From NCBI GenBank assembly GCA_003614675.1, contig ML002285.1, positions 1 through 47,838 on the forward strand: a stretch of DNA of 47,838 nt, in the 5' to 3' direction. The position numbers were made by a program, and so were the translations under genes. The notes under the pieces were generated by a model, which was not told the origin of the DNA, searched no databases, and saw only the letters and a program-made list of their open reading frames with translations. Source of the stretch: Dimargaris cristalligena (lineage: Eukaryota). Below, piece after piece: positions 39,245-40,679 of the stretch; within the stretch, counting starts at the first letter, position 1, and the number at the start of each line of letters is the position of its first letter.

Positions 39245-40679
39245 ATGAAGGCGGCGTTTATCGTATGCACCTTTATCATTGCCCACGCCATGGGTGGCAA
39301 AGTTAACGAGTCCCAGGCCGCTGAAGAGAACCTGCTAAAGCCGCTAAAGGGTGGCATCGCTAAGCCGGTACGAAACCATTCGCTGCGCAAATTGCCCATT
39401 GAAATTTTGGATGTAATTGCCGATTACTCAACCCTCGACGAAGTTCGTAAACTGGACCGGGTGGTCAATCGCCCCGGTTATAAATTAGAACCGTACCAGA
39501 TAGCTAAGCGCATGCGTAAGGTAAGATAGTTTTTTTATTATTATTTTTTGGCATTAAAAATTAACCATAATATTCCGAAGGTTCGGTTAGAGTAGGACGG
39601 TAGAGCGAAAAAGACCCCGAATCTGTTAATGAAGGCAGCGCGGTAGATTTGGTATACTTGGTTTTATTCCGTTCCCCCATAATATTCTCACCCACACCTT
39701 AAACCCCCCACAAAATTGACCCCAACTCTAATACTTGCGTTTTCTATTATATTGCCCGATTGGTTATAACTCGCCCCCCTATATTCCTTAAATTGGGAAG
39801 CCTTTTACCCGCCTAGAGCTCTGGTTTGGTTCGTCACTGGGCGTGCACCCCACCAATATTGCTGACGTACTATTTTACGTCCAGAAACATTTTGAAGCGT
39901 ACCTCTTAAACCACGCGGCCACGCTCCTGGCTATGAGTGAACAGCCAAGCCGACCACATTTGGCCACCCTCGAACTGCCTTTGAAATCCCTGACCCGGGC
40001 CAATCTTATGCACACTGCCCCCCTCCTGGCCTATATTCCACAGGGAAATATCAGTGTTGTTCTCAACTATCTTGATGACTTATACGGCTTAACCTACGAG
40101 CCCATTGATTATACTCGACCTGCCACAGTGCCCCTCGCCGCCACCTATGCCGGTATTCTGGACCCCGAACAGTTCCAACCCCTCCGCAACAGATTCCCCG
40201 AAGCACTTCGGCTTTATTTAACCAATAGTTTAGTGCCTCTGCTGATCAGATTCTACATTAGCCTGGAAGACCACGCTCGGTTCCGCCGATTAATCAAATA
40301 CACGTTCGGCCGGAGCAGCGATGACCTCCAGCTGCTTAGTCAGGTGGTTTTTTGGGTCGCCCGAATGCGTCCGGAATTGGTTGGGGAGTTTCTAAGCAAC
40401 CTCGACCTTGGCGTTAACGGCCAATTGGCTAAACGCCGAGTGTATCAGTGCGCAAGAGACAGTCAACACCTAGAAGTACTTGAAGTGTTAAATCGAGTGT
40501 GGGCAGATGAAGACCGGGAATCCACTCGGGTACCCACCTGCAGAACGACTATCTTTGTCAACCCTCTGCCTCCGATGACTCCAGAGAGCAAAGAGGTGCG
40601 CATTCTTCTGCCAGAAGCGTTGGCGCAGGAACTGGCACTTGACCCCCAGACTCCAGTTTCCTTAGAAACGATCCTGTAA
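39245..40679 (+). CDS. Secreted protein with N-terminal F-box-like motif; exons 39245-39520, 39801-40679 (384 aa)
   Basis: Signal-peptide-like MKAAFIVCTFIIAHAMG and F-box-like LRKLPIEILDVIADYSTLDEVRKLDRV. The GTAAGA donor at 39521 and the first AG after the branch point (39800) join the two ORFs in frame. The C-terminal domain is Leu-rich and helical-looking with no recognised family. Confidence 0.75.

Follow-up and report, generated by a model that had tools for sequence, protein, structure and literature searches.

A candidate F-box-like protein with a signal-like N-terminus, encoded by an orphan gene of the haustorial mycoparasite Dimargaris cristalligena

Contig ML002285.1 of Dimargaris cristalligena (Kickxellomycota, Dimargaritales), which was analysed over its whole length of 47,838 bp (the window), carries on its forward strand, at 39245–40679, a two-exon gene whose predicted product falls into three parts, namely a signal-like hydrophobic N-terminus, a divergent F-box-like segment (residues ~47–92) and a helical domain of ~290 residues. 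Judged from the DNA and its translations, the gene looks real and appears to be a species-restricted orphan, its splice acceptor and start codon being given here as predicted models. A preliminary description of this locus had proposed that the fungus, guessed to be a mycoparasite, exports the protein to redirect host protein degradation through the Skp1–cullin–F-box (SCF) ubiquitin ligase of its host. The observation behind that proposal is confirmed, and its interpretation is a fair hypothesis with partial and thin support: the lifestyle, the signal-like start, the F-box-like segment and the phase-0 intron all stand, and the proposed sharing of exon 1 as a module among related genes does not. 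We regard an F-box adaptor of some kind, wherever it acts, as having slightly better than even chances. Such an adaptor would attach to Skp1 through its F-box-like segment and use its helical or ankyrin-like domain to choose the protein that is ubiquitinated.

The F-box-like character is carried by residues 47–73, LRKLPIEILDVIADYSTLDEVRKLDRV, which read exactly as they had been written in the preliminary description. We translated the whole window in six frames and searched it, along with 100 shuffles, with the core pattern LPxE[ILV][ILVM]xx[ILV] and with an extended 24-residue pattern, both built on what we take to be the F-box consensus. For the core pattern, the window holds one match (mean 0.13 in the shuffles, maximum 2), and for the extended pattern also one, compared with 0 in the 100 shuffles. 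The UniRef entry for this protein (UniRef100_A0A4P9ZZW7) is named 'F-box domain-containing protein', a name that presumably derives from a PROSITE rule. In the ESM Atlas, residues 40–100 have an F-box cluster as their top feature match (0.93, 130 shared features) and F-box clusters in 6 of 10 structure rows (template modelling (TM) score by query 0.52–0.63), although the calibration of the tool does not extend to parts of proteins. Helices modelled with low confidence at residues 52–59, 64–74 and from 83 onwards fit a three-helix layout. F-box proteins usually carry the F-box close to the N-terminus, with a helical or repeat domain behind it, and the order of parts seen here agrees with this plan.

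A considerable body of results weighs against a genuine F-box. None of the Pfam F-box models (PF00646, PF12937 and their relatives) matched exon 1, a 52-aa fragment, the whole protein (as public model P0001) or the exon-2 pieces at E ≤ 10, in a search whose speed filters can lose matches with E above ~0.1, and the precomputed Pfam entry for the protein is '-'. No F-box protein was matched by phmmer among all PDB chains, nor by HMMER at E ≤ 0.001 among 1.84 billion representatives. The counts of shared features behind the ESM Atlas matches of residues 40–100 are low, and the tryptophan that is usual in the third helix is absent, with NRPGY in its place. AlphaFold2 single-sequence models, whose alignment depth was 1 because the protein has no relatives, reached a mean predicted local distance difference test (pLDDT) score of 46.6 for the whole protein (public model P0004) and of 40.6 for residues 19–138, with 31–47 in the F-box region; the models are too poor to judge the fold. 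Foldseek with the 120-aa low-pLDDT model returned 0 F-box chains among 37 rows, all at E ≥ 1.2, a result that is uninformative rather than negative. The claim of a close fit to the F-box consensus is supported by the LPxEIL motif, the UniRef name and the ESM Atlas look-alikes and has against it the Pfam F-box hidden Markov models, negative at E ≤ 10; we consider a functional F-box that binds Skp1 slightly more likely than not. Among the other matches, that of the 52-aa fragment to calcineurin A in the PDB (whole-sequence E 0.018) was rejected, neither of its two stretches passing alone, and the Pfam matches Peptidase_C42 and HetR_C (E ~0.1) were rejected as noise. A search for Skp1 with PF01466 gave no match in one E. 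coli record or in 14 control genomes.

The signal-like start, residues 1–17 (MKAAFIVCTFIIAHAMG), is likewise exactly as first written, and hydrophobicity along the protein peaks there. MK is followed by 13 uncharged hydrophobic residues and then by small-residue sites (AHA/AMG) at the candidate −3/−1 positions, an n-h-c layout by hydropathy. A crude signal-peptide test was passed by 3 of the 95 ATG-initiated open reading frames (ORFs) of ≥60 aa in the window, and among those passing, this ORF has the strongest hydrophobic core (best 10-residue Kyte–Doolittle mean 2.87). The 19-residue Kyte–Doolittle maximum, 1.42, lies at the N-terminus and is reached by no second segment, and because of this value the N-terminal segment seems neither long nor hydrophobic enough to span a membrane. 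With the gene itself set aside, 2 of 94 ORFs (~2%) pass the test; in a proteome with tens of F-box proteins, about one coincidence of a signal with an F-box is therefore expected. Translation from ATG 39245 would almost certainly bring the protein into the endoplasmic reticulum (ER). We know of no Skp1 in the ER, where an F-box would be without a known partner, and use of this ATG consequently speaks against an SCF adaptor.

The predicted gene model is set out in Table 1. Downstream of exon 1, another open frame extends from position 39792 as far as the stop codon at 40677–40679, and three in-frame AG acceptors would begin exon 2 at 39801, 39819 or 39885, giving products of 384, 378 and 356 aa, respectively. 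The 384-aa product is the public model KAJ1985890.1 (P0004), with the acceptor leading to 39801, and it is identical to the protein of the preliminary description, which had spliced it across a phase-0 intron; exon 1 indeed ends in phase 0 at 39520. The 378-aa product is the public model RKP39267.1 (P0001), whose exon 2 begins 18 nt downstream of that of KAJ1985890.1, at 39819, and six residues at the junction are the only difference between the two. These two independent public annotations, made on two assemblies, agree on the ATG and the donor and disagree on the acceptor. By consensus, the CAG at 39884, with a branch-like site (ctgac) 19 nt upstream, looks the best of the acceptors. The candidate intron would measure 280–364 nt, compared with 73–213 nt for the neighbouring inferred introns, at one of which the GTAAGA donor hexamer recurs. 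The intron gave no match to plasmids by megablast. A search for transcripts of the locus listed none. Four DNA-type contigs cross 39000–40842 without a joint; as DNA only, they are silent on splicing.

Codon usage favours the model. Log-odds were trained on eight neighbouring ORFs, of which six have Pfam support. In frame, they resemble those of coding sequence for exon 1 (+0.267), for 39801–39884 (+0.195) and for the remainder of exon 2 (+0.184), whereas 39521–39800 is non-coding-like (−0.228, GC 0.38) and the other five frames score negative. Because of this pattern, the gene is probably real, and its exon 2 probably begins near 39801 or 39819. The exon-2 frame is open, with coding-like usage, for 47 codons before its first ATG and therefore needs an upstream exon. 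The GC content at third codon positions (GC3) of the gene, 0.56–0.59, is lower than that of seven of the eight training ORFs (0.58–0.73). Within the contig, the coding sequence of the surroundings at 38–42 kb has the lowest GC content, and a young or weakly expressed gene would fit both this setting and the low GC3. Upstream, the short out-of-frame upstream ORF (uORF) listed in Table 1 could affect the choice of ATG.

Table 1. Features of the gene and its flanks, in window coordinates
Feature	Position (strand)	Description
TATATA hexamer	39015..39020 (+)	Sole TATA-like match of a pattern scan within 445 nt 5′ of the ATG; may be a core promoter element
Upstream ATG, 4-codon uORF	39130..39144 (+)	Out of frame with the gene; between TATATA (39015) and the main ATG
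Exon 1	39245..39520 (+)	92 codons, ends in phase 0; begins with the first in-frame ATG downstream of a stop at 39146
Signal-peptide-like N-terminus	39245..39295 (+)	Residues 1–17, MKAAFIVCTFIIAHAMG; by hydropathy and a crude test
Second in-frame ATG (Met16)	39290..39292 (+)	Context gccATGg; alternative start, would drop the hydrophobic segment
F-box-like segment	39383..39520 (+)	Residues 47–92; LPIEILDVI core at 50–58
Intron	39521..39800 (+)	Donor GTAAGA; candidate ends 39800 (AAG), 39818 (GAG) and 39884 (CAG)
Exon 2 with stop codon	39801..40679 (+)	Longest form; all-helical C-terminal domain without a family
Ankyrin-repeat-like stretch	40284..40523 (+)	P0004 residues ~254–333, includes QCARDSQHLEVLEVLNRVWADED; sub-significant
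AATAAA	40846..40851 (+)	Possible polyadenylation signal, 167 nt past the stop

Searches for relatives found the protein alone. In the protein searches, whole P0004 (1 of 8000 scored), residues 1–95 (1 of 45 candidates, at E ≤ 10) and exon 2 in a word-based search (1 of 2660 candidates) each returned only the protein itself. Metagenome contigs gave 117 pattern matches and viral contigs four, with 0 confirmed in either set, and a tblastn search for a second copy within the window gave nothing below E 0.8. As far as these protein and contig libraries and the window go, the gene appears to be an orphan. The preliminary description had seen in exon 1 a reusable secretion-plus-F-box module with paralogues; this idea is unsupported, because no paralogue or homologue, whether of residues 1–95 or of the whole protein, emerged from the protein, contig or window searches. 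Three matches at E ≤ 0.001 were returned by HMMER from the 1.84 billion representatives, namely the protein itself, P0002 (1654 aa, E 3e-10) and P0003 (1868 aa, E 2e-5). The latter two are long tandem-repeat proteins whose scores sum 17 and 21 weak stretches, respectively, and we rejected them as spurious; both also give absurd Pfam matches (coronavirus peptidase, YopE). Summed repeat matches of this type are a trap for automated homology calls.

The C-terminal domain of ~290 residues is nearly all helix according to DSSP on the low-confidence AlphaFold model, and it belongs to no family of Pfam, NCBIfam or PHROGs (0 families in the latter two), which agrees with its first description as an unrecognised helical domain. 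Its last ~80 residues weakly resemble one or two degenerate ankyrin repeats, a resemblance suggested by two weak and partly independent leads. Three of the four weak PDB sequence matches to the domain are of ankyrin type (two designed ankyrin repeat proteins (DARPins) and the ankyrin region of MIB1) and fall on residues ~254–333 at E values of 0.81–0.93, individually non-significant. For the whole protein, the ESM feature look-alikes belong to ankyrin clusters, most of them of giant viruses and others of green algae (0.93, 144 shared), in a type of list that comes out equally uniform for one third of shuffled proteins. Pfam Ank gave no match, and local self-alignment for internal repeats gave a best self-score of 30 (shuffled mean 24.7, maximum 42), both of which argue against an ankyrin-type target domain. 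Foldseek of the whole-protein model against the PDB returned generic helical-repeat rows only (best E 0.063, TM ≤0.25, none at E ≤ 0.001), and is uninformative given the poor model. The combination of an F-box with ankyrin repeats is accordingly offered as a lead. D. cristalligena is described as the only non-zoosporic fungus in Mycocosm that matches a giant-virus major-capsid-protein model (PMC13533422). A viral origin of the orphan gene would be pure speculation, the neighbouring genes being ordinary fungal ones and the viral contigs having yielded no relative.

If the protein is an SCF adaptor, its site of action depends on how its 5′ end is used. Action in the fungus's own cytosol is possible, with clearly less than even chances, and it would require that translation bypasses the hydrophobic start, as with initiation at ATG 39290, or that the 5′ end of the model is mis-set. 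The context of ATG 39290 (gccATGg) is better than that of ATG 39245 (aataATGa). The other version of the adaptor, a subset of the same reading, is the exported one: translation would begin at ATG 39245, the protein would be secreted at the haustorium and enter the host cytosol, and its F-box would bind host Skp1 and redirect host SCF ubiquitination. An F-box would serve no purpose extracellularly or in the lumen of the ER; if both the signal and the F-box are real, delivery to another cytosol is therefore the only rationale. The guess of a parasitic lifestyle proved right, since the Dimargaritales are parasites of other fungi that use an appressorium and a biotrophic haustorium, and D. cristalligena is accordingly a haustorial biotrophic mycoparasite (PMC9866270). 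Export is further favoured by the n-h-c N-terminus with small residues at −3/−1 and the strongest core among the three of 95 ORFs that pass, by the weakness of this segment as a membrane span together with the lack of a second hydrophobic segment, by the position of ATG 39245 as the first in-frame ATG with an A at −3, by an orphan status that is typical of effectors, and by the precedents of SSGP-71 (PMC4617103), the Piriformospora indica and Rhizophagus clarus candidates and Legionella AnkB, which are compared below. It inherits, however, every doubt about the F-box. The signal was judged by hydropathy and the crude test only, it would be removed by initiation at the better-placed ATG 39290, and with ~2% of ORFs passing by chance, about one such coincidence per proteome is expected. 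No paralogue family or shared module was found, the gene is surrounded by housekeeping genes and not by an effector cluster, a 384-aa product with two cysteines in its mature part is not a classic small secreted protein, and no translocation motif or mechanism is known. We therefore consider the exported version unlikely.

The same N-terminus could belong to a secretory or extracellular orphan in which LPxEIL is a chance or vestigial feature, with no Skp1 binding and a function unrelated to ubiquitination. Such a protein would account for the strong signal-like start and for the three N-x-S/T sequons (N21, N44 and N175), for the negative or uninformative outcome of all the F-box profile and structure tests that were run, and for the absence of a family for the remainder of the protein. 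It is harder to reconcile with the extended 24-residue pattern, which arose 0 times in 100 shuffles, and with the UniRef name and the ESM Atlas matches, which point to an F-box; moreover, a protein that has no more than two cysteines beyond its signal and is predicted to be all-helical and solenoid-like would more usually be intracellular. We judge this alternative improbable. A more radical possibility is that the gene model is an artefact or a young non-functional ORF, with the two exons not in one mRNA or the locus untranslated. No homologue was found in any search made, the intron is longer than the neighbouring inferred ones, GC3 falls below that of most training ORFs and the acceptor differs between the two annotations. 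The gene models may also be ab initio, because 'transcriptom' occurs 0 times in the main text of the Dimargaris genome paper. Against an artefact stand the coding-like usage of both exons in frame, with a non-coding-like intron and five negative frames, the 47 open, coding-like codons ahead of the first ATG of exon 2, which need an upstream exon, and a GTAAGA donor that is in phase with three acceptors and recurs at an inferred neighbouring intron. An artefact is therefore highly improbable in our view, and the SCF adaptor remains the reading that we favour.

Comparison with known systems places this candidate adaptor among several precedents. Like cellular F-box proteins (SCF adaptors; PF00646/PF12937), it has an LPxEIL core ~50 residues into the chain and, after it, a helical or repeat-like domain; unlike them, it is Pfam-negative, has a signal-like N-terminus, carries a C-terminal domain of no known substrate-binding family and has no relatives that we found. 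AnkB of Legionella pneumophila is translocated by the Dot/Icm system and combines an F-box with two ankyrin domains; after the LP/AA change it no longer binds SKP1 (PMC2790608). The two proteins share an N-terminal F-box or F-box-like segment followed by ankyrin repeats, which are putative here, as well as a proposed docking on host SKP1 through LP. AnkB, in contrast, is bacterial and type IV-injected, and its SKP1 binding and the LP/AA effect were shown by experiment, whereas Skp1 docking of the Dimargaris protein is a proposal. AnkB is reported to be anchored via a C-terminal CaaX motif (PMC5506055), whereas the Dimargaris protein ends in ...SLETIL. By analogy, the closest eukaryotic parallel appears to be the SSGP-71 family of the Hessian fly, secreted F-box–leucine-rich repeat (LRR) effectors that are reported to bind host Skp (PMC4617103). 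Both cases involve a eukaryotic parasite and a secreted (here signal-like) protein with an N-terminal F-box or F-box-like segment, followed by a domain thought to choose host targets; they differ in that SSGP-71 is a gene family with LRRs, used by an insect on a plant, whereas the present protein is a singleton with a helical or ankyrin-like domain.

Fungal candidates of a related type have been listed before. They include NLS_30765 of Rhizophagus clarus, with a predicted signal peptide and an F-box(-like) domain (PMC4746824), and predicted secreted F-box and RING proteins in the secretome of Piriformospora indica (PMC3708536). Like the Dimargaris protein, these are fungal proteins that combine a signal or signal-like start with an F-box or F-box-like domain and for which action in host cells is an in silico proposal; unlike it, they match PF12937 and their hosts are plants, and all of these cases are in silico only. 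Pathogen F-box adaptors that use the host SCF are also known from Ralstonia (RipG/GALA) and Agrobacterium (VirF) (PMC4617103, PMC4312480); unlike the Dimargaris protein, they rely on type III or type IV delivery and have LRRs or other target domains, and no sequence relationship to them was detected. In plasmodiophorids, secreted ankyrin proteins have been described, 17 of them with SKP1/BTB/POZ domains (PMC12503489). Among the papers listed by our literature searches, none described a secreted F-box candidate of a mycoparasite, with the secretome supplements of PMC6784888, PMC9391592 and PMC9866270, which could list this protein, lying outside their scope; the words effector, secreted and F-box are absent, along with 'transcriptom', from the main text of the Dimargaris genome paper. 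The novelty seen in the preliminary description, which knew of no characterised fungus-on-fungus example, holds in so far as no mycoparasite candidate was found, and it is reduced by the candidates with a signal and an F-box that are already in print for P. indica, R. clarus and the Hessian fly. The protein is thus another candidate of the already known signal-peptide-plus-F-box kind and not a new kind of system.

The genomic setting is ordinary. The neighbouring genes encode a WD40 protein, DNA polymerase alpha subunit B, a Mur-ligase-type enzyme, VID27, an aquaporin and a C2H2 zinc-finger protein. Scans of the whole window for tRNAs and Rfam families found none, and a repeat scan around the gene gave nothing notable. 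In the 3′ intergenic region, which is common to the gene and the convergent zinc-finger gene, an inverted repeat at 40780–41026 has 74-nt arms that are 72% complementary and lie 99 nt apart, and a microsatellite, (ATTTGG)x4.2 at 40852–40876, overlaps it. Elsewhere, a 207-aa ORF on the reverse strand (15462–16124, ATG at 16082) begins MRTPSLTGYLLLTMGLVMLTSPSV and passed the crude signal-peptide test; it lacks a Pfam family as well as any meaningful match in the PDB and may be a second orphan secreted protein. Long ORFs of 243, 240, 733, 556, 594 and 167 aa follow each other on the forward strand at 29317–37328 and resemble one large multi-exon gene, of which the last piece alone is assigned to a family (WD40) and ~2,300 residues are without a Pfam match.

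At present, the value of this gene is that of a flagged candidate, consisting of one predicted gene model with a weak F-box signal and no relatives, and not that of a discovery. It is doubtful that a haustorial mycoparasite exports an F-box-plus-ankyrin-like adaptor into its fungal host, where it would plug into the Skp1–cullin ligase and cause host proteins to be destroyed. If this were true, the protein would represent the first ubiquitin-ligase mimic used by one fungus against another, and a eukaryote would have converged, with delivery by a signal peptide, on the AnkB combination of an F-box with ankyrin repeats. Mimicry of ubiquitin ligases, known from bacteria, viruses and a gall midge, would then also cover a fungus that attacks another fungus. 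The means by which biotrophic mycoparasites among the early-diverging fungi control their fungal hosts are almost entirely obscure, and a secreted F-box adaptor would offer a concrete and testable mechanism for such control, the hijacking of the host SCF.

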